A stretch of 64,000 nt of DNA from an uncultured Candidatus Saccharibacteria bacterium (GTDB lineage Bacteria; Patescibacteriota; Saccharimonadia; Saccharimonadales; JAGQNJ01): NCBI GenBank assembly GCA_964510945.1, contig CAZEED010000003.1:16222-80221 (forward strand). Direction: 5' to 3'. The position numbers and the translations under genes were made by a program. This document shows positions 17,771 through 64,000 of this stretch, one piece after another (within the stretch, counting starts at the first letter, position 1; the number at the start of each line of letters is the position of its first letter). The notes under the pieces are model-generated. The model had not been told where the DNA came from. It did no database searches and saw only the letters and a program-made list of their open reading frames with translations.

Positions 17771-18136
17771 CTAGTTGTCAGGAGTTTTTGATTGAGTAGT
17801 AGTCTCAAGTTTTACTGGAGCTTCTTTTTTTACGGTAGTTTTTGGCTTTGATTTTTTTACGCTAGCTAGTTTTTCGGCTTTGGCTTTTTCGGCAGCATCT
17901 TTTCGGGCCTTAAAGCGGTCTACTCGACCTTCGACGTCCACAAGTTTTTCTTGTCCTGTAAAGAACGGGTGAGAAGCGCTACTAATATGCACTTTTACTA
18001 GAGGATACTCGTTGCCGTCTTCCCATTTGATTGTTTCTTCAGAATCAACGGTCGATCGGGTTAGCAAAGACCAGTTGTTATTGAGGTCTTGGAAAACCAC
18101 AGTTCGGTAATTTTTTGGGTGTAAATCTTTTTTCAT
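17771..18136 (-). CDS. rpmE: 50S ribosomal protein L31 (Cys-less type B) with Lys-rich C-terminal extension
   Basis: [10 protein letters not shown]...HPFFTG. It has no CxxC zinc motif. The start is taken at the internal ATG (18136) rather than the ORF-track 18157. Confidence 0.9.
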
Positions 18137-18324: not shown

Positions 18325-19059
18325 ATGGCATCAAACGATGTAGATATGAAGAAGCTGTTAGAGGCTGGTGCGCACTTTGGGCACAAGACAAGTCGATGGC
18401 ATCCAAAAATGGCGCCGTATATTCACAGTAAACGTGGCGGGATTCATATTATTGATCTAGTACAGACGGCAGATAATTTAAGTTTGGCGTTAGAATTTGT
18501 AGAAAAAACGGTAGCAGAGAGCAAAACTATATTAATTGTTGGCACAAAAAAACAAGCTCAAGAGGCTGCACGTAAAACTGCAGATGAAACAAGCTCTCCT
18601 TATGTAGTTAACAGATGGATTGGCGGCATGCTGACCAACAGTAAGACTATTCAGGGTAGAATCAAGTACCTGAAGGATCTCGAAGAAAAAATGCAGTCAG
18701 GCCAATTTGCTGCTAGGTACAATAAGCTTGAGCTCCAAAGAGTACAAGAAGAGATCGATCACATGAATTGGATGTATGGTGGCATAAAAGCTATGCCAGC
18801 AAAACCTAACGCGGTTTTTGTTTTTGATGCGCTCCACGACGACAATGCTATAAAAGAAGCTCAGAAACTATCTATCCCTGTCGTGGCGATTGTGGACACT
18901 AATGTCGACCCATCGACTATTGATTGGCCTATCCCATGTAATGACGATTCAAAGAAAACTCACGATTTAATTGGAGAATTATTAACTACAGCGATAAATA
19001 GTGGAAAATCTAAACAAAAAACTGAAGTAAAAAAAGAAGGAAAGAAGGAGGACAAATAA
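18325..19059 (+). CDS. rpsB: 30S ribosomal protein S2
   Basis: 244 aa with LLEAGAHFGHKTSRWHPKM. Confidence 0.97.
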   Translation: MASNDVDMKKLLEAGAHFGHKTSRWHPKMAPYIHSKRGGIHIIDLVQTADNLSLALEFVEKTVAESKTILIVGTKKQAQEAARKTADETSSPYVVNRWIGGMLTNSKTIQGRIKYLKDLEEKMQSGQFAARYNKLELQRVQEEIDHMNWMYGGIKAMPAKPNAVFVFDALHDDNAIKEAQKLSIPVVAIVDTNVDPSTIDWPIPCNDDSKKTHDLIGELLTTAINSGKSKQKTEVKKEGKKEDK

Positions 19060-27940: not shown

Positions 27941-28750
27941 ATGAAAATATTTAAAAACAGAACAAGATCTAGTAAAGGGAATTTTGATAAGCTTCGTAGA
28001 TGGAATGTTGTATTGGCATTTCTTCACGCATTACAGGGTGTGTTAGTAGTAGTTTTAGCAAAAAATGTAGCTTTTCCAATAAACACTAGCTATTTAACTC
28101 TGGATACTATGACTACTGGTATGAACGGATCTCCAAGTTTGGTCCCAGCAATACATAATGTTGCAAATATTAATTTGGCGTATTTAGTGGCCGTGTTTTT
28201 CTTTATGTCGGCTATCGCACATGGATTGCTGGCAAGCTATTTGCGTGACTGGTATGAGAACAATCTGACCAATCATGTAAACAAAATGCGATGGATTGAA
28301 TACTCTTTAAGCGCTAGCACCATGATGATCGGAATCGCACTATTGAGCGGGATTTATGATTTATCTAGTCTTGTGATGATTTTTGGGCTAACGGCAGTCA
28401 TGAATCTTTGCGGTCTGGTTATGGAGCTTCACAATAAAAAATCTAAAACAGTATCATGGATTAGTTTTATAGTTGGATGTATCGCAGGGATACTACCTTG
28501 GGTAGTTATCGGAATATATTTTTGGGGAACTAATGTTTATGGGAGCGGTCAGGTTCCATCATTCGTGTACTGGATCTACGTTAGCCTATTCGTATTCTTT
28601 AACTGCTTTGCTATCAATATGTATCTACAGTACAAAAGAATTGGAAAATGGGCTGATTATCTATACGGAGAGCGTGTGTATATGATTCTGAGTCTAGTCG
28701 CAAAATCGCTTCTCGCTTGGCAGGTCTTTTTTGGCGCACTTCGACCGTAA
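27941..28750 (+). CDS. Heliorhodopsin
   Basis: 269 aa with 7 hydrophobic helices. It is collinear with the prototype heliorhodopsin as I recall it, through RWN..FLHALQG, RWIEYSLSAS, GCIAGILPWVV and YLQYKRIGKWADYLYGERVYMILSLVAKSLLAWQVF. The last block includes the Schiff-base Lys in SLVAKS. Confidence 0.88.
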   Translation: MKIFKNRTRSSKGNFDKLRRWNVVLAFLHALQGVLVVVLAKNVAFPINTSYLTLDTMTTGMNGSPSLVPAIHNVANINLAYLVAVFFFMSAIAHGLLASYLRDWYENNLTNHVNKMRWIEYSLSASTMMIGIALLSGIYDLSSLVMIFGLTAVMNLCGLVMELHNKKSKTVSWISFIVGCIAGILPWVVIGIYFWGTNVYGSGQVPSFVYWIYVSLFVFFNCFAINMYLQYKRIGKWADYLYGERVYMILSLVAKSLLAWQVFFGALRP

Positions 28751-50112: not shown

Positions 50113-50788
50113 CAAATCAACCAGTGGGATTGTACTGAAGAGAATTAATTTCGGCGAGGCTGATCGGATTTTGACAATAATTACACCAGATTACGGCAAG
50201 CTGACATTAATCGCAAAAGGTGTTCGTAAAGAAAAGAGTAAATTGGCAGGTGGTATTGAACTGTTTAGTGTTAGTAGTATTAGTTTTATCCCAGCAAAAA
50301 AGGAGATTGGGACGCTAACTTCATCCAGACTCGTAACGCATTACGGCGAGATAGTAAAAGATATTAACAGGACAAATACAGCATATACAGTTCTAACTAC
50401 AATTGATTCGGTAACGCAAGAAAACTGTGATATTGATTACTATAATTTGTTACTCCGTTCGATATCGGCATTAGATAATCTTGAATATGATTTGAGCTTA
50501 GTGGAGGCATGGTTTTATATGAATCTGATAAAGATAATGGGTCACGAACCGAATCTGACAACAGATAGGGAGGGCTATAGTCTGGCAGAAGCTAGTAATT
50601 ATGCTTTTGATCAAGAGGATATGTGTTTTGTGCGCAAAGTTGATGGTTCGTATTCTAGTCGACATATAAAGCTACTGCGCTTGCTGGTAGACGAGAGTAT
50701 TGAGCGCATTAATGTGGTGGGTGGAGTTCAGGCTGAGGTTGGTGTTTGCTTGCAACTATTGCAACATATTATGCAAACCGTTAGTTAA
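50096..50788 (+). CDS. recO: DNA repair protein RecO
   Basis: 230 aa with GIVLKRINFGEADRILTIITPDYGKLTLIAKGVRK, a typical RecO OB-fold N-terminus. It overlaps the upstream ORF by 17 nt. Confidence 0.9.
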   Translation: MPAPNSKSTSGIVLKRINFGEADRILTIITPDYGKLTLIAKGVRKEKSKLAGGIELFSVSSISFIPAKKEIGTLTSSRLVTHYGEIVKDINRTNTAYTVLTTIDSVTQENCDIDYYNLLLRSISALDNLEYDLSLVEAWFYMNLIKIMGHEPNLTTDREGYSLAEASNYAFDQEDMCFVRKVDGSYSSRHIKLLRLLVDESIERINVVGGVQAEVGVCLQLLQHIMQTVS

Positions 50789-50813
50789 TACATCTGATAC
50801 AATAGATGATAAT

Positions 50814-52190
50814 ATGAGCAATAAAGTTAGTCTAGAAGATATTGTTAGTTTGTGTAAACGCCGGGGGTTTGTTTATCCTGGAAGCGAGATATATGGTGGT
50901 GAAGCGGGATTATATGACTATGGTCCTTACGGCGTTGAACTACTGAATAATCTCAAATCTGCTTGGTGGCGAGCTAACGTAACAACTCGTACAGATTTTG
51001 TTGGTTTGGATTCAGCTATCTTTAAAAATCCGAAGGTTTGGGAAGCATCTGGTCACACAACGGGATTCTCGGATCCATTAGCAGAGTGTAAGAATTGTCA
51101 TAATCGAATTCGTGTTGATAAAGAGCTTGAAGCAGTGGGCGTTACTGCTGACGAAAAAATGTCTGAGCAAGAATTAAATAAACTGTTCGACGAAAATCGC
51201 AAAGAGATTAAATGTCCTAAGTGCGGAAAGAAGAATTTTTCATCAGTTAAAGCTTTCAATCTTTTAGTAAAATCAAATTTGGGCGATTTTGCTGGCGAAG
51301 AAGAAAGGGTAGTATACCTTCCAGGTGAGGCATGCCAAGGGATTTATCTCAATTTTAAAAACGTGGTCGATACGACCCGCATGAAAGTCCCTTTTGGTAT
51401 TGCTCAAATAGGTAAGGCCTTTCGGAACGAAATTAGTCCACGCAACTTTCTATTCAGAACTCGCGAACTGGAGCAAGCCGACACGCAATATTTTATCAAA
51501 CCAAACGAAAATAAAGTCGTTTACGAACAGGTTAAAAAGAATCGTTGGAAGTGGTATCAGGATATAGGTATCAAAGAGGATAACTTACGTTGGAAAAAGC
51601 ATGATAACTTGGTCTTTTACTGTAAGGAAGCTTGGGATATTGAATACAATTTCCCGTCAATGGGCTTTGACGAGTTGGAAGGAATACATGACAGAACTGA
51701 TTACGATCTGAGCCAGCACACCAAGTTTTCTGGAACAGACTTAAGTTATCAAGACCCATCTTCTAACGAAAAATATATACCTTGGGTTGTCGAAACATCA
51801 GTTGGTCTAGGACGAATGTTCTTGGCAGTGGTATGCGATGCATACGAGCAAGAAGAAATAGATGGCGAAATACGCACTGTCTTAAAACTGCACAAATCTC
51901 TCGCTCCAGTCAAAGTTGCGGTCTTTCCGTTATTAAAAAACAAGCCCGAATTAGTCAAAAAGGCTAAAGCAGTTTTTGAAACTCTTAACCAAACCATGAC
52001 TTGTGAGTTTGATGATAATGGGAATATTGGAAAACGCTATCGTCGGCAGGACGAAATCGGAACGCCGTATTGTGTAACAATTGATTTTGAAACGTTAGAC
52101 GATGACACCGTTACGGTGCGGGATCGTGACACGACAAAACAAGAGCGAGTCAAGATTGATGAACTCGAGGGCAAGCTAAAGCTTGCATGA
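50814..52190 (+). CDS. glyQS: Glycine--tRNA ligase (dimeric GlyQS type)
   Basis: MSNKVSLEDIVSLCKRRGFVYPGSEIYGG is a typical N-terminus. It has a Zn-ribbon-like insertion CKNC...CPKC. The ORF-track start 50700 overlaps recO and is rejected. Confidence 0.95.
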   Translation: MSNKVSLEDIVSLCKRRGFVYPGSEIYGGEAGLYDYGPYGVELLNNLKSAWWRANVTTRTDFVGLDSAIFKNPKVWEASGHTTGFSDPLAECKNCHNRIRVDKELEAVGVTADEKMSEQELNKLFDENRKEIKCPKCGKKNFSSVKAFNLLVKSNLGDFAGEEERVVYLPGEACQGIYLNFKNVVDTTRMKVPFGIAQIGKAFRNEISPRNFLFRTRELEQADTQYFIKPNENKVVYEQVKKNRWKWYQDIGIKEDNLRWKKHDNLVFYCKEAWDIEYNFPSMGFDELEGIHDRTDYDLSQHTKFSGTDLSYQDPSSNEKYIPWVVETSVGLGRMFLAVVCDAYEQEEIDGEIRTVLKLHKSLAPVKVAVFPLLKNKPELVKKAKAVFETLNQTMTCEFDDNGNIGKRYRRQDEIGTPYCVTIDFETLDDDTVTVRDRDTTKQERVKIDELEGKLKLA

Positions 52191-52262
52191 GTCTCATACT
52201 TTTGACCGCCAAAACGGGGTCCCCAAAAAACCTGTTTTTAGGGGTGTAGAAGTATGCAAAAG

Positions 52263-52392
52263 CTCGGGCTTAACGTTTTTTCTTGATAGACTCACTAGTC
52301 AAGACAAACAACAGGCTGTGGAGCTCCCTACGGTCAAACAGTCCTCGCCTGATAGTTGTTTGTTTGACGTGAGTCATCAGGAAAAAGCCGAG
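52263..52392. other. About 130-nt rod-like imperfect palindrome (candidate structured RNA or MITE-like element)
   Basis: The arms CTCGGGCTT..TTTTTCTTGATAGACTCAC..GTCAAGACAAACAACAGGC and GCCT..GTTGTTTGTTTGAC.GTGAGTCATCAGGAAAAAGCCGAG pair over about 40 bp, with a few bulges and a 30-nt apex. Confidence 0.5.
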
Positions 52393-52527
52393 GCCCAACA
52401 AAACTGCACGGTAAGGGAAATTATTTTTATGATTGGGATGGTAAGGATGAAGTTAGGTTCGTGATTGACATAAAACTGCTGTAAAAATAATTTGCTAAAC
52501 TATATTTTTTCAACTTACTGATACAAT

Positions 52528-53076
52528 ATGAGAGACATGAGAGAGATTGAGGTTAAGGCACGCATAAGAGATCTAGAGAAACTAGAGAAAGTATTAGTCG
52601 AGAAGGGGATAACACTTGGCGAGAAACTAACACAACATGATGTTGTGTATGGAGAGCCTGGCAATAAAGATAATGAGTCTGGGGCAAATTGGCTAAGAAT
52701 CAGGACTGAAAATAACAAGAAGGTCTACTTTACCTTAAAAAGATCTGTTGTAGGACACTTAGATAGTATCGAGCACGAAACGATTGTTGATGACGCTAAA
52801 GAATTAGAAGAGATCATTAAGCTGTTGGGATATGAATTATATTCAGATATTACAAAGATACGTCGGAAGGCAAAGATTGGAGAGATAGAGATTTGCATTG
52901 ATAGCGTGCCGAGCTTAGGTGATTTTATCGAAGCTGAATTGATGATGGATCATCAAAGTGATCACGATATTGTGGCCGCCGAGTTATGGAAATTATTAGA
53001 ATCGTTTGGGCTTAATAGGGTAGATGAGGTGCATGAAGGATATGATGTATTAGAGCGAAAACAACGCGGATTATAA
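52528..53076 (+). CDS. CYTH-domain protein (class IV adenylate cyclase / triphosphatase family)
   Basis: 182 aa with the N-terminal ExExK signature EIEVKARI. Size and pattern match CyaB/ThTPase-like proteins. Confidence 0.85.
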   Translation: MRDMREIEVKARIRDLEKLEKVLVEKGITLGEKLTQHDVVYGEPGNKDNESGANWLRIRTENNKKVYFTLKRSVVGHLDSIEHETIVDDAKELEEIIKLLGYELYSDITKIRRKAKIGEIEICIDSVPSLGDFIEAELMMDHQSDHDIVAAELWKLLESFGLNRVDEVHEGYDVLERKQRGL

Positions 53077-58708: not shown

Positions 58709-59338
58709 ATGAAAACTTTAGATTTGCCAAAGATTAGAATAAAAGACGCTTGGTTGCTGCGGATGAATGCGTCGGCGCATATACATAAATTATATGCAAA
58801 AAAAGGTGAACCGCTTGCGGATGATGAGTGGATGGCTAGAAAAGTTAAGTCTTACCAAAAGGCGTGGAAGCCGTTCGAAGAAAAAATTCTAACTTCGATC
58901 TGTGATGTACTTGATTTGCGGTTTAACCAAAACATAATAAATGTATATATTGCTCCATGGTTTTTTGCTTTTAGCGAACCCTTAGTAATCGGTGTCACAA
59001 GAGGTTCAGATGAGTTCATTGATACCTTAACCCATGAACTAATACATAGACTATTAACAGATAGCAACAAAACACCAGAGGATCTTACGAGAATAAGTGA
59101 TGAATGGAAAAATTTATTTGGTAAAAACCATTCTTTTAATACATTGGTGCACATTCCAGTCCATGCCGTTCACAAATATATTTATCTTGACGTTTTAAAA
59201 GACCCATCTCGACTAAAGCGAGATTACGAAAAAGACAGAAATGGCCCCGATGATTACATAAAATCCTGGGATTATGTTAATAGAATCGGTTATAGAAAAA
59301 TAATAAAACAACTAAAGGATAACTACGATAGTCTTTAG
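58709..59338 (+). CDS. Hypothetical protein with HExxH motif (possible zinc metallopeptidase-like)
   Basis: LTHELIHRL is the only recognisable motif. The ATG lies 2 nt after the upstream stop. Confidence 0.45.
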   Translation: MKTLDLPKIRIKDAWLLRMNASAHIHKLYAKKGEPLADDEWMARKVKSYQKAWKPFEEKILTSICDVLDLRFNQNIINVYIAPWFFAFSEPLVIGVTRGSDEFIDTLTHELIHRLLTDSNKTPEDLTRISDEWKNLFGKNHSFNTLVHIPVHAVHKYIYLDVLKDPSRLKRDYEKDRNGPDDYIKSWDYVNRIGYRKIIKQLKDNYDSL

Positions 59339-59431
59339 CAAAAAGCAGAAGCGACTCTATTCGTAATGTGTTCTGATTGAACCCTTCAATATCGACGTTT
59401 CGCGAATGCGAGATGGTACAATTGCAATTAT

Positions 59432-59776
59432 ATGGAAGCTATGGAGACAGCTAGGTTTTATTTCGAACTTTCTAATAAGAGCGATTTTGATAATATTGAA
59501 AAACTATTTACGGATAAAACAGTTTATATTTCTCAGACAACAGGGGAGTACGTTGGTAAAAAAGACATTATTGCCATGCAAAGGAATTTTCATGGTCAGT
59601 TTTCGTCTCTGAACTGGCGAGTTACTTCTGTAAAAGAAGTAAAACCCGGCGTGATTTTATTCGATTTCGATTTTGTGGGTGAAATGCTAGATGGGGAAGT
59701 CATGAAAACCTCCGGCCAAGAAACCGTATCGGTCAGCCATAATAAAATTATAAAAATAGTAATCACAAAAAAATAA
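59432..59776 (+). CDS. SnoaL/NTF2-like fold small protein
   Basis: 114 aa. The pattern (ARFYFELSNKSDFDNIEKLF...) is typical of SnoaL-like proteins. Weak assignment. Confidence 0.5.
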   Translation: MEAMETARFYFELSNKSDFDNIEKLFTDKTVYISQTTGEYVGKKDIIAMQRNFHGQFSSLNWRVTSVKEVKPGVILFDFDFVGEMLDGEVMKTSGQETVSVSHNKIIKIVITKK

Positions 59777-59848
59777 CTGCGAGTTCAGTATAAGATAATC
59801 TTGTTTTTGTTTGGGTCTCGTCGTTCACGGGCATCGGCAGAAACCGAT

Positions 59849-59963
59849 GAATTGTAGTATGCAAGAACCGAATCAAGCTGAAAACCAGTCGAGAATCCTA
59901 TACTAAAAACAATATTCGAGACCGCTTGCGTTTTTTCGGCGCGGTTCTTGCATACTACAATTC
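59849..59963. repeat. Perfect 22-bp inverted repeat separated by 71 nt
   Basis: GAATTGTAGTATGCAAGAACCG (59849-59870) and its exact reverse complement CGGTTCTTGCATACTACAATTC (59942-59963). Confidence 0.9.
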
Positions 59964-60073
59964 AATAGTGTTTATGACTCAGCCCAGAGTTTTATATTAC
60001 TTTGGCGATACAAAGTAATGAGACGCTGAGCTTAGGCTCACAATGAATAGATTGTGCTAAAGTTAAAGTACTT

Positions 60074-61327
60074 ATGAAGAATCCTAATTCTCAATTTCCG
60101 CCGAATTTTTTATGGGGAGCGAGTACATCATCACACCAGGTGGAAGGCGGTAACCACAACCAATGGTCAGTGTGGGAACTAGCCAATGCCAAAAGCTTGG
60201 CAAGGTCGGCGCATAGTAGACTGGAGTGGCTACCTAACTGGTCAGAGATAAAACAGCAGGCCGAGGACCCGAACAACTATATATCTGGACGAGCGATTGA
60301 TCATTACCGACGCTACATAGAGGATTTTACTATTGCCAGAAGCTTGAACTTAAATTCGTTTAGATTTGGGATTGAGTGGGCCAGAATTGAGCCGAAAGAG
60401 GGAAGATGGGACAATGCGGAAATTGAGCATTATCGAAAGTATATTAAGGAGCTTCGAAAGCATGGGCTGGAGCCAATTTTGAATATTTGGCATTGGACTA
60501 ATCCGGTTTGGTTTGAAGAAAAAGGGGCATTCAAAAAGCGGGCAAATCTAAAATACTTTGATAGATATGTGCAAAAAATTTCTTCAGAATTCGGCAGTGA
60601 GCTTACTTATATAATTACCATCAATGAACCAAATGTGTATATGAGCAATAGTTACGGAATGGGGTGGTGGCCACCTCAGGAAAAGAATTGGATTAGCGCA
60701 TTAAAGGTGTATTTTAACCTCGTATCTGCACACAAAAGATCTTATAGAATACTTAAACATGATAATAAGCATTTGATGGTCGGAACGGCGCCGCAACTTT
60801 CCAATATACAGCCCAAGCGCGCTCAGAATATTATTGATAGAATGAGCGTGAGGTTAATGGAATATTTTTGGAATTGGTGGTTTTTAAACCGGATTCGTCG
60901 GTGTCAAGATTTTGTAGGTCTTAATTATTATTTTTCAGACTATTATCGAAATGCGAAAATGGATAACCCCGAGACTCCGAAAAACGATTTAGGATGGTAC
61001 ATGGAACCAGAAGGATTACATCCTTTACTGAAAAGAGTTTGGGCTAGGTATCGTAAACCGATAATCATTACCGAAAGTGGCGTTGCAGATAGTCAAGATC
61101 AGTACAGAAAGTGGTGGTTCGAACAATCAGTGATAGCAATGGAAAGGGCGTTAAGTGAAGGGGTGCAGGTAGTCGGGTATCTGCATTGGAGCTTGCTTGA
61201 TAACTTTGAATGGGCGTATGGTTGGTGGCCCAAATTTGGACTAGTTAGCGTAGATCAAAAAACTATGAAGCGCGAGATTAGACCAAGTGCTAAATATTTG
61301 GCAAAAATAATAAAGCAACTTAGCTAA
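60074..61327 (+). CDS. Glycoside hydrolase family 1 beta-glucosidase
   Basis: 417 aa with the acid/base TINEPN and nucleophile ITESG motifs. Confidence 0.92.
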   Translation: MKNPNSQFPPNFLWGASTSSHQVEGGNHNQWSVWELANAKSLARSAHSRLEWLPNWSEIKQQAEDPNNYISGRAIDHYRRYIEDFTIARSLNLNSFRFGIEWARIEPKEGRWDNAEIEHYRKYIKELRKHGLEPILNIWHWTNPVWFEEKGAFKKRANLKYFDRYVQKISSEFGSELTYIITINEPNVYMSNSYGMGWWPPQEKNWISALKVYFNLVSAHKRSYRILKHDNKHLMVGTAPQLSNIQPKRAQNIIDRMSVRLMEYFWNWWFLNRIRRCQDFVGLNYYFSDYYRNAKMDNPETPKNDLGWYMEPEGLHPLLKRVWARYRKPIIITESGVADSQDQYRKWWFEQSVIAMERALSEGVQVVGYLHWSLLDNFEWAYGWWPKFGLVSVDQKTMKREIRPSAKYLAKIIKQLS

Positions 61328-61361
61328 GTTAATTCGTTAGTGCATAGACCAATGTATAAAA

Positions 61362-61390
61362 CCCCACATGTAGTGTAGGGGTTTTTCTTT
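61362..61390 (+). terminator. Rho-independent terminator after GH1 gene
   Basis: CCCCACA-tgtag-TGT(A)GGGG followed by TTTTTCTTTTT, with an A-tract 5' of the stem. Confidence 0.8.
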
Positions 61391-61434
61391 TTGTCAAAAC
61401 TGTGGATAAGTATGTGAGAAACAGATAAAAACCC

Positions 61435-61489
61435 TTGCATGTGGGTAGTAGTGGGTAGTATATTGATAGCCAGTGGGTAAACGTGGGTT
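61435..61489 (+). promoter_or_regulatory. Putative dcw promoter (TTGCAT-18-TATATT) overlapped by four MraZ-box-like direct repeats
   Basis: GTGGGTA occurs at 61441, 61451 and 61473, and GTGGGTT at 61483. These form two pairs with a 10-bp period, about 100 nt upstream of mraZ. Confidence 0.65.
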
Positions 61490-61590
61490 AGCCCATAACC
61501 AACGAATCCTTAACTGCTAGCCAAAATAGCTTGCAATAAGGGCAAAAAATAAAAACCACGAGTAACAATTAAAAAAGGACTGACCAAACA

Positions 61591-61950
61591 ATGGCAACGG
61601 TGGATTATTTCGAAAGGAGACTTGACGACAAGCATCGGTTAACAATACCGACTGAGCTTCGAGCTGAGTTTGCGAGCGGAGTAGTCGTAACCAGAGGATT
61701 CAAACAATATTTGCACTTGTATCCAAGAGCTGTTTGGGACGAACTGGTTGAACCGCAACTCGCAGGGAATATCTTGGACGAGAAAACTGCGGATCTAAAT
61801 GTACAGTTTCGTAGCGGTAAAAGTGAAGCAGCCCTAGATCAAAAACAGGGCAGGGTTCTATTAGAACAACATTTGCTTGATTTTGCCGGTATAACACGAG
61901 ACGTTGTGGCAGTTCGGGCCGGAAAATACTGGCGACTAATAGCGAAATAG
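61591..61950 (+). CDS. mraZ: Transcriptional regulator MraZ (short form)
   Basis: 119 aa with the DDKHRLTIP motif and a second DQKQGRVLL repeat. Confidence 0.88.
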   Translation: MATVDYFERRLDDKHRLTIPTELRAEFASGVVVTRGFKQYLHLYPRAVWDELVEPQLAGNILDEKTADLNVQFRSGKSEAALDQKQGRVLLEQHLLDFAGITRDVVAVRAGKYWRLIAK

Positions 61951-62282
61951 TCGTGCACAGTTAGCACATTAACATTTTATAGATCGAATAGAACAACCAA
62001 ATAAACGAGGTTAGCTATTCGGCAATCAACAGGTGGAAGAAGGTAACCACCTCATAAAAACCTTAGTACCTTACACTAAAACACCTCCCAAAACTCCACC
62101 TCACACAAAGTCTCTCAAATGAATTAGTTAGAATGTTTTGAAATGAAGTCTTTATTGGTTTTTAAAACGAATATATATTCTTTCAATGATCAACAGGCTA
62201 ATTAGTTCTTAACAAAATCAAAAACAAAAACGTACAAAACAAAAAGTTGATTGCTGAATAGGTGACCTTTCAAAATAAAAAT

Positions 62283-63203
62283 ATGAAAACAAAAATCACC
62301 AAAGATCACCAAATACATACTCCAGTTCTTCTTCGCGAAGTGCTGTCGTATCTTCAGCCGAGTCAAGGCCAGAGTTTGCTTGATTTGACCGCAGGATATG
62401 GTGGCCACTGTTGCGAGATACTGAAGCGCACCTTATCATACGAGGACACTATACTTGTCGACAAAGATCAAACAGCAATTGATTATTTGACGAATAAGTT
62501 TGGCGACAAAAACGTAAAGATCATAAAAGATGATTTTTTATCGGCAAGCACAAAATTATTTCAAGCTCAAAAAAAGTTTGACTTGATACTTGCAGATCTG
62601 GGCGTTTCTTCGGAACATTTTGACAATAAAGAGAGGGGTTTTTCATTCATGGAAGATGCACCTCTAGATATGCGCATGGATCAATCCGCTGACCTGACTG
62701 CTAACGATATAGTTAATAGCTATGAGGAAGTAGAAATTGTAAAGATTCTAAAGGAATATGGGGAAGAGAAGTACGCAAAGCGAATTGCCAATAGGATTGT
62801 AAAAAGCCGACCAATAAAGTCAACTCTAGAGTTAGCGGGATTGATTGAATCGGCTGTGCCTAGCCGGGGACGAAAAAAAATAAACCCCGCAACAAAGACT
62901 TTTCAAGCACTGAGAATTGCAGTTAACGACGAAGTTGAAAGCTTGAAAAAATCCCTACCTATCTGGCTAGAGCTATTAAATCCTGAGGGAAGAATAGTCG
63001 TAATATCTTTTCATAGTATTGAAGATCGCATTGTCAAAAAGTTTTTTAATGTCGAAGGCAAGTCGGGTTACGAGAGTAGGCTAGAGATATTAACGAAAAA
63101 GCCAATAACCGCTAGTCCTCATGAATTAGATTTAAATCCACGTGCTCGAAGTGCAAAACTCCGAGCCGCAGTAAAAATAAAAAAACAGGAAGGAGCAAGT
63201 TGA
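62283..63203 (+). CDS. rsmH: 16S rRNA (cytosine1402-N4)-methyltransferase RsmH
   Basis: HTPVLLREV, DLTAGYGGH and SFHSIEDR motifs. The ORF-track GTG at 62262 is an alternative start. Confidence 0.93.
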   Translation: MKTKITKDHQIHTPVLLREVLSYLQPSQGQSLLDLTAGYGGHCCEILKRTLSYEDTILVDKDQTAIDYLTNKFGDKNVKIIKDDFLSASTKLFQAQKKFDLILADLGVSSEHFDNKERGFSFMEDAPLDMRMDQSADLTANDIVNSYEEVEIVKILKEYGEEKYAKRIANRIVKSRPIKSTLELAGLIESAVPSRGRKKINPATKTFQALRIAVNDEVESLKKSLPIWLELLNPEGRIVVISFHSIEDRIVKKFFNVEGKSGYESRLEILTKKPITASPHELDLNPRARSAKLRAAVKIKKQEGAS

Positions 63204-63292
63204 ATGCCAATTCAGGTACGAAGCAGCTCCCGAGCATACAAAGTTCGGGTGAAAGTTCTTTAAATAAAGGATACTGCACCCAAAGTAGTAAT

Positions 63293-63321
63293 GGTGAGCA
63301 CGACAAAATAACGTGCTCACC
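63293..63321 (+). other. Perfect 10-bp stem hairpin in rsmH-ftsL spacer
   Basis: GGTGAGCACG-acaaaataa-CGTGCTCACC with no T-run after it. Confidence 0.6.
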
Positions 63322-63363
63322 GCAGTGAACAAACACAAAAATAAAAACTTAAACGAGATAAAT

Positions 63364-63714
63364 ATGACATATTCGAGTTCGCTATCAATGACTAGACAAC
63401 AGAGATTTGGTCAAAGAAATCAAAATACAACTAGCCTTCGTTCAGAACAAAAAGGTATAGGACCGATAAGTAATTCGATAATTCTAATTGTTTTAGCATG
63501 TATTTTGGGACTATTATATTTAGCCCAGATTACTAAAACTAACGCTTATGGATATAAAATAAATTCACTAAACGAAAAGCACTCACAGCTTAGACAAGAA
63601 CATTCAGAACTTGAAGTAGCTTCAGCTAGATTGCAGGCTCTTGATCGCGTTCAGAACAGTGAAGTTGCGAAGAGCTTAACTCCTGTTGCACCGTCCGGCA
63701 CTATCGCTAATTAA
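63364..63714 (+). CDS. ftsL: FtsL-like cell division protein (TM + coiled coil)
   Basis: A single TM segment (IILIVLACILGLLYLAQI) is followed by a coiled coil. It lies between rsmH and ftsI. The ORF-track GTG 63313 falls inside the hairpin. Confidence 0.7.
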   Translation: MTYSSSLSMTRQQRFGQRNQNTTSLRSEQKGIGPISNSIILIVLACILGLLYLAQITKTNAYGYKINSLNEKHSQLRQEHSELEVASARLQALDRVQNSEVAKSLTPVAPSGTIAN

Positions 63715-63719
63715 CAACC

Positions 63720-64000
63720 ATGAGGCCAGATTACAGCCAAAAAACCCCAAATACTTTAATGCGTGTACGTACTTGGTACATTGTTCTTGTGGGGATATTC
63801 GGCTTGATAATCCTTCGCCTTTTTTATTTACAGATAATTCGACATGATTATTATAGAAATACGGCACTACTTGGACAGTATAAAGAATACGAAATAGCTC
63901 CTGAACGCGGAGTCATAGAAGCACACGATGGTGATCGAGTTGTGCCAATAGTACTTAATGAAAAAAAGTTTACGCTGTTTGTTGATCCAAAATACGTCAA
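63720..64000 (+). CDS. ftsI: Penicillin-binding protein FtsI/PBP2-type transpeptidase, N-terminal fragment (3' end outside window)
   Basis: My own translation is MRPDYSQKTPNTLMRVRTWYIVLVGIFGLIILRLFYLQIIRHDYYRNTALLGQYKEYEIAPERGVIEAHDG... This gives a TM anchor plus a typical PBP dimerisation-domain start. The frame stays open to the window end. Confidence 0.8.
   Translation, partial: MRPDYSQKTPNTLMRVRTWYIVLVGIFGLIILRLFYLQIIRHDYYRNTALLGQYKEYEIAPERGVIEAHDGDRVVPIVLNEKKFTLFVDPKYV

Follow-up and report, generated by a model that had tools for sequence, protein, structure and literature searches.

The locus examined here raises the question of what a long and perfect inverted repeat is doing in the gap (59777-60073) between a SnoaL-like ORF (59432-59776) and a GH1 gene (60074-61327) of a Saccharibacteria genome. 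All coordinates refer to the stretch of 64,000 nt (64 kb) that was analysed as a whole, hereafter called the window, which its GH1 homologues assign to Candidatus Saccharibacteria (TM7). A sequence-only reading had reported a perfect repeat of 22 bp, or 23 bp with one flanking pair, between these two genes, and both the repeat and the identity of its neighbours held up: the arms, at 59848-59870 and 59942-59964, are 23 nt each, 100% complementary (23/23) and spaced by 71 nt. Our answer, which we hold with high confidence, is that the repeat is the central helix of a rod-shaped structured element of ~210 nt, which exists in multiple copies, belongs to a family absent from Rfam and is not a riboswitch of the GH1 gene.

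In the 64-kb window, the arm 22-mer was found at its own two sites only, even when 3 mismatches were allowed, and it was matched in 0 of 100 dinucleotide shuffles. Just five inverted repeats reach 16 nt with a 12-nt seed across the 64 kb, and comparable long inverted repeats are otherwise rare in ~707 kb of Saccharibacteria DNA. Folding of the gap gave -95.4 kcal/mol on the + strand (z -6.1 vs shuffles) and -82.1 kcal/mol on the - strand (z -4.2), the + strand thus being better by 13 kcal/mol. As had been suspected, the structure is real, non-random and beyond an ordinary RNA helix.

A chance palindrome was rejected, as the expectation is 0 and the same architecture is found in other species. 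The sequence-only reading had proposed that unconserved helices together with a lack of additional copies would point to chance; we found both conservation and further copies. Perfect arms around a short asymmetric segment also resemble an inverton, that is, a phase-variable 71-bp segment that is invertible between 23-bp recombinase sites. However, in nine independent assemblies of the window's strain the gap is 100% identical and its interior stands in a single orientation, and the orientation of the interior relative to the neighbouring hairpin H1 is fixed in all family members. An interior of 71 bp is, in addition, very short for synapsis. Both chance and inversion are hardly credible explanations of the repeat.

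An exact search for the arm 20-mer in 185,579 GTDB representative genomes gave 0 matches; the set does contain a relative whose GH1 is 96% identical, and this relative is missed because its arms differ. Arm 20-mers of three members had no match in IMG/VR, which leaves the notion of spacer-like, phage-derived arms unsupported. ARAGORN found no tRNA or tmRNA.

The element spans approximately 59812-60019, and comprises a long rod (P1-P2-P3-P4-P6; ~59812-59986), a U-rich linker and the hairpin H1. Its parts, its relatives within the window and the neighbouring signals are as follows.

52192-52408, + strand: second family member, in the orientation opposite to the first, with H1 at ~52195-52256, the rod at ~52262-52400 and the motif CAAACAGTCCTCG
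59338-59353, + strand: remnant of a third copy, GCAAAAAG plus CAGAAGCG, directly after a 215-aa ORF, recognised by comparing window 59300-59440 with 3030-3370 of the homologous locus L010
59432-59776, + strand: SnoaL-like gene (Pfam SnoaL_2), whose 3' end faces the rod; likely the upstream transcription unit
59812-59847, + strand: outer 5' half of the rod, pairing with 59966-59986
59812-59815 and 59820-59822, + strand: 5' strand of P1
59841-59847, + strand: 5' strand of P2, AAAC plus CGA
59848-59870, + strand: left arm of P3, TGAATTGTAGTATGCAAGAACCG, 23/23 complementary to 59942-59964
59871-59941, + strand: interior of 71 nt, structure drawn by hand
59877-59886 with 59930-59940, + strand: P4, covarying AAA/TTT vs GGA/TCC
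59888-59896 with 59914-59922, + strand: P6, the inner hairpin
59924-59932, + strand: conserved motif CGCTTGCGT
59942-59964, + strand: right arm of P3, CGGTTCTTGCATACTACAATTCA
59965-59986, + strand: outer 3' half of the rod, partners of P2 and P1
59987-59995, + strand: U-rich linker GAGTTTTAT, read as the A-rich ATAAAACTC on the other strand, which matches the family's conserved GCAAAA
59996-60019, + strand: hairpin H1, ATTACTTTG-gcgata-CAAAGTAAT, a divergent form of the widespread module CATACTTTT..AAAAGTATG
60055-60063, + strand: probable GH1 promoter, an extended -10 (TGCTAAAGT) lying 10 nt before the ATG at 60074 and outside the element

Several of these parts recur as motifs in other members, which are denoted here by the L numbers of their loci. 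The motif CGCTTGCG is common to the window, L010, L012, L037, L104 and L130. P2 covaries between members (TGA/TCA, CAA/TTG and CGA/TCG) and carries conserved one-sided bulges beside AAAC/GTTT. When the strand that begins with H1 is read (the - strand for the window copy), AAAC-N-NNN-T precedes the 5' arm and NNN-GTTT follows the 3' arm, while the interior is closed by GGAAC and GGTCCTC-type strands; CGCAAGCG is present in part of the members. The small hairpins that had been pointed out earlier in the gap are all present in the sequence, but their conservation, judged by eye on alignments, is uneven: the ATTACTTTG/CAAAGTAAT hairpin is kept throughout the family, CATCGG/CCGATG is restricted to the window and L010, and CACAAT/ATTGTG overlaps the GH1 promoter and is not retained in L010.

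When the 297-nt gap was used as query, plain nhmmer and blastn recovered L010 only, and the orthologue in L012, a different Saccharibacteria species, surfaced by an inverted-repeat search alone. L012 carries a perfect 23-bp helix at the same position between SnoaL and GH1, with an interior of 72 nt, and its arms are unrelated in sequence to those of the window (7/23 identities). The arm length of 23 nt recurs in seven members, in which the inner end is always CG and the start is mostly TGAA. Helices of the same length and different sequence are found in L012, L037a, L038a, L082 and L135, and arm identity between members is 4-14/23, with just the close relative L010 at 22/23. The four substitutions in the L010 arms amount to one compensated pair (A-T to G-C) and two single transitions. 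Perfection is not universal. L037 has two rods upstream of GH1, one with 23-nt arms (22 Watson-Crick pairs and one G·U) and another that is imperfect; in L038 the 23-nt arms have a single U·U mismatch and enclose an interior of 132 nt; other members show 1-5 mismatches within their 23-nt arms. As judged from these alignments, the arms are free in sequence and fixed in pairing and in length.

MAFFT misaligned the arms, and we therefore built a covariance model (R1) from the window and L010 copies with a hand-drawn structure (H1, P1, P2, P3, P4 and P6). R1 finds nine homologues: L012b (93 bits), L104 (73 bits), L135 (66 bits), L037a (59 bits), L130 (48 bits), L037b (44 bits), L038a (33-35 bits), L082 (26 bits) and the second copy in the window, 52192-52408 (19.7 bits and E = 0.0086 in an alignment that covers the whole model, obtained with filters off). 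The latter was also recovered by nhmmer with the L010 paralogue as query (E = 4e-9). In five members, with the window and L010 left out, 92.5% of cells are paired vs 64% in shuffles, and 43 of 61 pairs are changed on both sides, while controls in which the partner strand was slid paired at only 30-46%; the alignments were fitted to the model structure, which favours that structure, and the effect is judged to be far larger than this bias. Copies also accumulate locally, with two and one remnant in the 64-kb window and two each within 9 kb in L010, L012 and L037. Hence the repeat does have relatives, as the sequence-only reading had wondered, in the sense that the covariance model and nhmmer reveal further members of the family; the arm sequence itself has no other copy in the window. 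Primary-sequence likeness between copies is confined to H1, the linker and internal-loop motifs, the helices being wholly different.

A search of Rfam 15, as had been proposed, identified no matching family. Over the 64-kb window there was no match at gathering score; for 59300-60500 at E <= 10 only hairpin-type noise appeared, the best being a plant miRNA model (29.8 bits vs a cut-off of 90); and on the homologous loci no family overlapped the element. No description of the element was found in the literature, whether searched by topic or by sequence string.

In every relative, H1 and the linker adjoin the rods; read on the other strand, they follow the consensus CATACTTTT-loop-AAAAGTATG-CAAAA. 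This consensus was found in at least 120 metagenome contigs of 25-67% GC, against ~10-20 matches expected by chance from its 21 specified bases, according to our own estimate. The H1-bearing contigs that were listed come from gut, marine, groundwater and soil samples. The stems extend over 10-15 bp, though the pattern imposes just 7 pairs, and the free part of the stem comprises 190 Watson-Crick pairs, 2 G·U and 5 others (n = 197). The H1 loop tends to be complementary to the sequence directly past the linker, with a mean best match of 3.33 vs 2.49 +/- 0.17 after permutation, a value exceeded in 0 of 500 permutations; this complementarity suggests that the loop may pair downstream as a pseudoknot or an alternative hairpin. 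Searches around the module were otherwise negative. No protein family recurs within 3 kb of the 120 H1 sites, no Rfam family overlaps them, and a gut-metagenome H1 locus compared by BLAST to plasmids and phages retrieved just an unrelated Oscillospiraceae repeat and unannotated contigs. A strict pattern for the AACTC...TCAAACAG core was matched in only 10 of 112 metagenome copies, indicating that this core is not universal. Some metagenome contigs carry inverted copies ~1.3 kb apart, or three co-oriented copies.

The position of the element invites a regulatory interpretation, and the sequence-only reading had indeed proposed that mutually exclusive helices form a riboswitch or an attenuator in the 5' leader of GH1. 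The element immediately precedes GH1 on the same strand and is rich in structure, and its sequence in the window allows alternative pairings; in these respects it is like riboswitches and the BglG/LicT-type RAT antiterminator leaders of beta-glucoside genes. The predicted promoter, however, lies between the element and the ATG. Of 76 orthologous loci, 33 carry the motif TGnTAnnnT ahead of GH1, compared with 11 of 380 controls; its distance to the ATG, counted from its end, is 6-11 nt in 32 of these 33 loci. It is found ahead of SnoaL and neighbouring genes too, again a few bases before the ATG. In the window, the promoter starts 36 nt past H1. This position of the extended -10 implies that GH1 is essentially leaderless, with a leader of ~0-4 nt, and that the element is upstream of its predicted promoter.

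The association with GH1 is itself loose. The element is missing upstream of most GH1 orthologues, and in those at 71-72% identity the preceding gene is ~20 nt away, without the element. In L082 and L093 the element upstream of GH1 is inverted, and copies occur at unrelated loci, such as window 52192-52408, which follows a class II aminoacyl-tRNA synthetase (ProRS-like) gene. The competing helices that had been proposed, GGTCTCG/CGAGACC and ACCGC/GCGGT, are present in the window but have no counterpart in L012 or L037, and no terminator-like site was found between the element and GH1. Taken with the lack of an Rfam match, these differences from riboswitch and RAT leaders leave the leader interpretation unsupported, and we consider it very unlikely.

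The repeat had also been seen as a possible border of an acquired GH1 cassette. The order GH1-mraZ-rsmH holds in most of 80 representative loci, indicating that GH1 is ancestral and not an acquired cassette, so that this suggestion was wrong as regards GH1. The comparison of synteny locates the variation elsewhere, between the upstream gene and GH1. In many relatives a DNA-alkylation-repair or other gene abuts GH1 with a gap of ~20 nt. The variable segment consists of the 215-aa ORF, SnoaL and the gap in the window, of SnoaL in L010 (GH1 96% identical), and of a 210-aa ORF and SnoaL in L012 (GH1 70% identical). A modified cassette reading fits better, in which the variable part is the SnoaL side, bracketed in relatives by two inverted copies of the element: these flank SnoaL in L010, and SnoaL with the 210-aa ORF in L012. 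The two copies of L037 lie side by side and enclose no cargo. The window has its 215-aa ORF at the site of the first L010 copy; L010 has a full copy there, and the window retains the remnant at 59338-59353. In L090-L092, L094 and L095 the upstream gene abuts GH1, and L090 and L095 also lack a copy after the ProRS-like gene. The bracketing copies, the cargo-free pair, the remnant and the missing copies are together consistent with elements being gained and lost, or with recombination at them. Orthologous copies persist between species whose GH1 proteins are 61-70% identical.

Such a history is among the arguments for an alternative in which the element acts as DNA, whether through a structure-specific hairpin or cruciform, as a mobile or repeat palindrome, or as an attC-like recombination site edging small gene cassettes between the DNA-alkylation-repair gene and GH1. 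It would account for copies in both orientations among Saccharibacteria, for the sporadic presence in the loci just listed, for the inverted copies around cargo in L010 and L012 with the cargo-free pair of L037 and the window remnant, and for the metagenome contigs with inverted or co-oriented copies. The near-perfect Watson-Crick pairing, without G·U excess on either strand, speaks in the same direction, and the one-sided P2 bulges by AAAC/GTTT bear a loose resemblance to attC, with its extrahelical bases and AAC/GTT core. On the other hand, a scan of 29 window ORFs, among them those near the window copies, found no integrase (IntI included), transposase, HUH or other recombinase gene, and the absence of a protein family recurring within 3 kb of the 120 H1 sites weighs in the same sense. 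No target-site duplication is visible beside the 23-nt arms. Copies differ in their arm sequences, a point against recent transposition. The interior, a three-way structure bearing small tetraloop hairpins (UUCG in L052 and L135), looks RNA-like, and the bias in orientation relative to the neighbouring gene, described below, is more easily explained by transcription. We therefore regard a role as DNA as a serious possibility, though an unlikely one.

The element can also be compared to known DNA elements. Like attC sites, the element keeps its structure while its sequence varies, has one-sided bulges near a basal helix that contains AAC/GTT, is variable in its apical part and is associated with small promoter-bearing cassettes. 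Nonetheless, attC sites measure 57-141 nt, whereas the element measures ~190 nt and its stems can be perfect, and attC arrays run head to tail, whereas copies around cargo here are inverted. The basal helix reads ..CATAAAC / GTTTCTG.. (CAGAAAC / GTTTATG on the other strand); of this, AAAC/GTTT alone is conserved, and the attC core sites R'' (RYYYAAC) and R' (GTTRRRY) are absent from it. Likeness to MITEs, and to a young MITE in particular as had been proposed, is partial. The element is short and non-coding, has inverted repeats, occurs in several copies per genome and shows presence/absence polymorphism; but its inverted repeats are not shared between copies (4-14/23, with L010 at 22/23), no cognate transposase was found, and orthologous copies are old, persisting across species. 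No direct repeat lies beside the 23-nt arms (CCGA | ... | ATAG), and the outer ends of the whole element are not sharply defined.

If the element functions as RNA, the strand that carries it becomes the central issue. When each cluster of the metagenome set was represented by a single copy, the rod-side gene was directed towards the element 31 times and away from it 12 times (p = 0.005), and no bias was seen for the H1-side gene. The window copy has the majority layout, SnoaL followed by the rod and H1. This orientation, gene-rod-linker-H1, also folds better in 9 of 12 members, and read in this sense the rods contain 15 G·U vs 8 A·C mismatches. Fold, G·U/A·C balance and gene orientation all weakly point to the + strand for the window copy. 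Among Saccharibacteria, no fewer than six copies (window 52192-52408, L010a, L012a, L037a, L038a and L082) have the opposite orientation to their upstream gene, and an orientation-specific 3'-UTR role is accordingly not valid for all. Tetraloops are contradictory on strand, with CUUG on the + strand in the window and UUCG in the other orientation in L052 and L135.

G·U pairs are rare on either strand, with 8 or 15 of ~440 rod pairs, depending on the strand read, and 2 of the 197 pairs in the free part of the H1 stem. This scarcity suggests either selection for an uninterrupted duplex or a constraint at the DNA level, such as hairpin or cruciform pairing or template-switch correction. A near absence of G·U is unusual for RNA under structural selection, and points towards pairing at the DNA level.

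The opposite strand would be used if the element were a stand-alone small RNA gene on the - strand, divergent from GH1 and convergent with SnoaL, with H1 as a 5' hairpin or pseudoknot followed by the rod. On this strand the conserved single-stranded linker right after H1 is A-rich (GCAAAA), and the pairing of the H1 loop past it has the geometry of an H-type pseudoknot; where the 23-bp helices of L010 and L037a depart from Watson-Crick pairing, they have G·U on this strand; a C(UUCG)G tetraloop appears in this orientation in L052 and L135; and an RNA convergent on its neighbouring gene would fit the orientation bias of the metagenome set equally well. Against this, the sequences inspected upstream of H1 contain neither a conserved promoter nor TGnTAnnnT, and no terminator lies past the rod. 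The H1-first orientation folds worse in 9 of 12 members, A·C exceed G·U mismatches (15 vs 8), and the inner hairpin of the window would contain tandem U·C/C·U mismatches, which are G·A/A·G on the + strand. An independent small RNA is an improbable explanation of the element.

We tentatively favour, with somewhat less than even confidence, a gene-end RNA structure transcribed on the + strand after the SnoaL-like gene, which would act as a processing, termination or insulation hairpin. In this scheme the element would be the tail of the SnoaL-like transcript. A perfect helix of 23 bp, about two turns of dsRNA, would be a plausible substrate of RNase III and a block to exonucleases; ~20 bp or more of uninterrupted duplex is taken as the mark of an RNase III substrate, and the helix has this length and perfection in sequence (23/23). 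The rod followed by the U-rich tract may end or process the upstream transcript, and together they may shield the adjacent leaderless GH1 promoter from read-through. Strong selection for an uninterrupted duplex could keep the arms perfect, as could their homogenisation if template switching within the DNA palindrome corrects one arm against the other, and the two may act together. There is no canonical terminator after the rod, the U-tract being interrupted and H1 AU-rich, and none of the 29 ORFs scanned in the window was identified as an RNase III gene.

Among known kinds, the closest is that of the dispersed intergenic palindromic repeats (Correia, ERIC, REP). Like Correia/NEMIS of Neisseria, ERIC/IRU, RPE, BOX/RUP and bcr1, which are intergenic, of 100-200 nt, multi-copy and present in both orientations, the element is sporadic between relatives and, if transcribed together with its neighbours, would fold as one long hairpin. 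RNase III cleaves Correia hairpins, and these change how stable the adjacent mRNAs are; we infer that the gene-end structure favoured above may work by the same mechanism. The element is intergenic, multi-copy, present in both orientations, sporadic and built on a long palindrome; the similarity in primary sequence over the whole length that marks copies of such repeats was not found. Indeed, copies within each of those families share their arm sequence, whereas here the arms are unrelated (4-14/23) and it is helix length, internal loops and H1 that are conserved. Correia elements also duplicate a TA target, of which none was seen here, and in contrast to such repeats the H1 module is spread over contigs of 25-67% GC rather than one genus. 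REP/BIME sequences are similar in being extragenic palindromes at gene ends, often as inverted pairs, with a conserved hairpin beside a short single-stranded motif (H1 and GCAAAA in the present case). REPs, however, are 20-40 nt long, species-specific and RAYT-linked, while the element is a multi-helix rod of ~190 nt with a hairpin, and no RAYT gene was found near its copies.

A more far-reaching proposal, which we regard as speculative and rather improbable, is that H1, the linker and a variable perfect helix define an uncatalogued class of structured elements across phyla, in which the 23-bp helix is functional in itself. It might serve as a duplex measured by a Dicer-like RNase III, yielding small RNAs of ~23 nt with programmable sequence, or as an attC-like single-strand recombination site, offering a gene-cassette platform to the reduced genomes of episymbionts.

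Saccharibacteria genomes are tiny and tightly packed, and an element of ~210 nt has been kept at the same site across GH1 identities of 61-70%; such retention in tight genomes makes it unlikely to be junk. The element displays an unusual mix, with loops and helix length conserved and a free helix sequence that is often perfectly Watson-Crick, and its H1 stem is near-invariant in metagenomic contigs of 25-67% GC in a family absent from Rfam 15. If it acts as RNA, it would be a candidate for a new class of gene-end or processing elements in bacteria that are not easily studied genetically. If it acts as DNA, it would point to a recombination or repeat system that is specific for structure and influences which genes lie beside the cell-division (dcw) cluster. 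Either way, it provides a testable target and a covariance model for annotation.

A second copy of the element family is present in the window and is inverted relative to the one at 59812-60019; its surroundings are as follows (window coordinates):

50700-52190, class II aminoacyl-tRNA synthetase (ProRS-like) gene, on one flank
52192-52408, second copy of the element
52528-53076, CYTH-domain gene, on the other flank

In this second copy H1, the flanking hairpin module of the element, begins 5 nt past the stop codon, and the H1 loop carries a large insertion. In two related Saccharibacteria loci, L090 and L095, the orthologous junction is without this copy. In L010, the closest relative, an element copy occupies the position of a 215-aa ORF of the window (58709-59338). 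This ORF starts 2 nt past the stop of a DNA-alkylation-repair gene; Pfam gave no match for it, and tblastn found none in any of 80 related loci.

When window positions 59325-63994 were compared to L010, the identity was mosaic, with approximately 95% across 59475-62320 and 58-85% on either flank. The tract of high identity covers the 3' part of the SnoaL-like gene, the 297-nt gap that follows it, the GH1 beta-glucosidase gene, mraZ and the mraZ-rsmH spacer, a pattern that suggests recent recombination over approximately 2.8 kb. The spacer itself (61951-62261, 311 nt) may be a second structured element. Positions 62021-62319 are 98-100% identical to L010, and the spacers of three distant relatives carry inverted repeats of 24-25 nt with arms 169-197 nt apart (L084, 8005-8249; L087, 5878-6096; L089, 2275-2493). 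Rfam gave no match.

The H1 module, elements bearing it and a repeat unrelated to them were also found at the following sites:

L113, 508-540, and also L138 and L179, H1 module by 23S rRNA
L165, 6038, 7395 and 10700, H1-bearing elements, all three on one strand
L131, 1865-1920, and L216 (Vescimonas fastidiosa NZ_AP023416.1), 2501-2554, unrelated repeat GGATTCCCACGACCAGTCTGCGGACTGGTCTCGGAATGACA

In one gut-metagenome lineage (L113, L138 and L179), the module lies between the 3' end of the 23S rRNA and a tRNA gene, with the tRNA gene beginning directly after H1; the operon order at this site is 23S, tRNA, tRNA, 5S. Some metagenome contigs (L165, L188, L196 and L209) carry two or three H1-bearing elements inside a few kb; in L165, each is located at the 3' end of an ORF block called on the opposite strand, and an additional conserved hairpin, GACAGT..ACTGTC, precedes each of the three. 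The unrelated repeat adjoins H1-bearing elements in gut Oscillospiraceae-like contigs, and is present at 11 places in one Vescimonas replicon.

Elsewhere in the window, a 35-nt inverted repeat (83% complementary, arms 1149 nt apart) has one arm, 17821-17855, inside the gene for ribosomal protein L31 (17771-18157, - strand), whereas its second arm, 19005-19039, falls within the 3'-terminal part of the S2 gene (18325-19059). A heliorhodopsin gene is encoded at 27941-28750 (Pfam PF18761, E = 4e-94).

Genes of these Saccharibacteria have an extended -10 motif (TGnTAnnnT, often TGnTACAAT) ahead of them; for GH1 it was found in 33 of 76 loci, and in the window it is located at 60055-60063 and 59415-59423. 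The distance from the end of this motif to the ATG is only 6-11 nt, which implies that leaderless or near-leaderless mRNAs would be widespread in this lineage.
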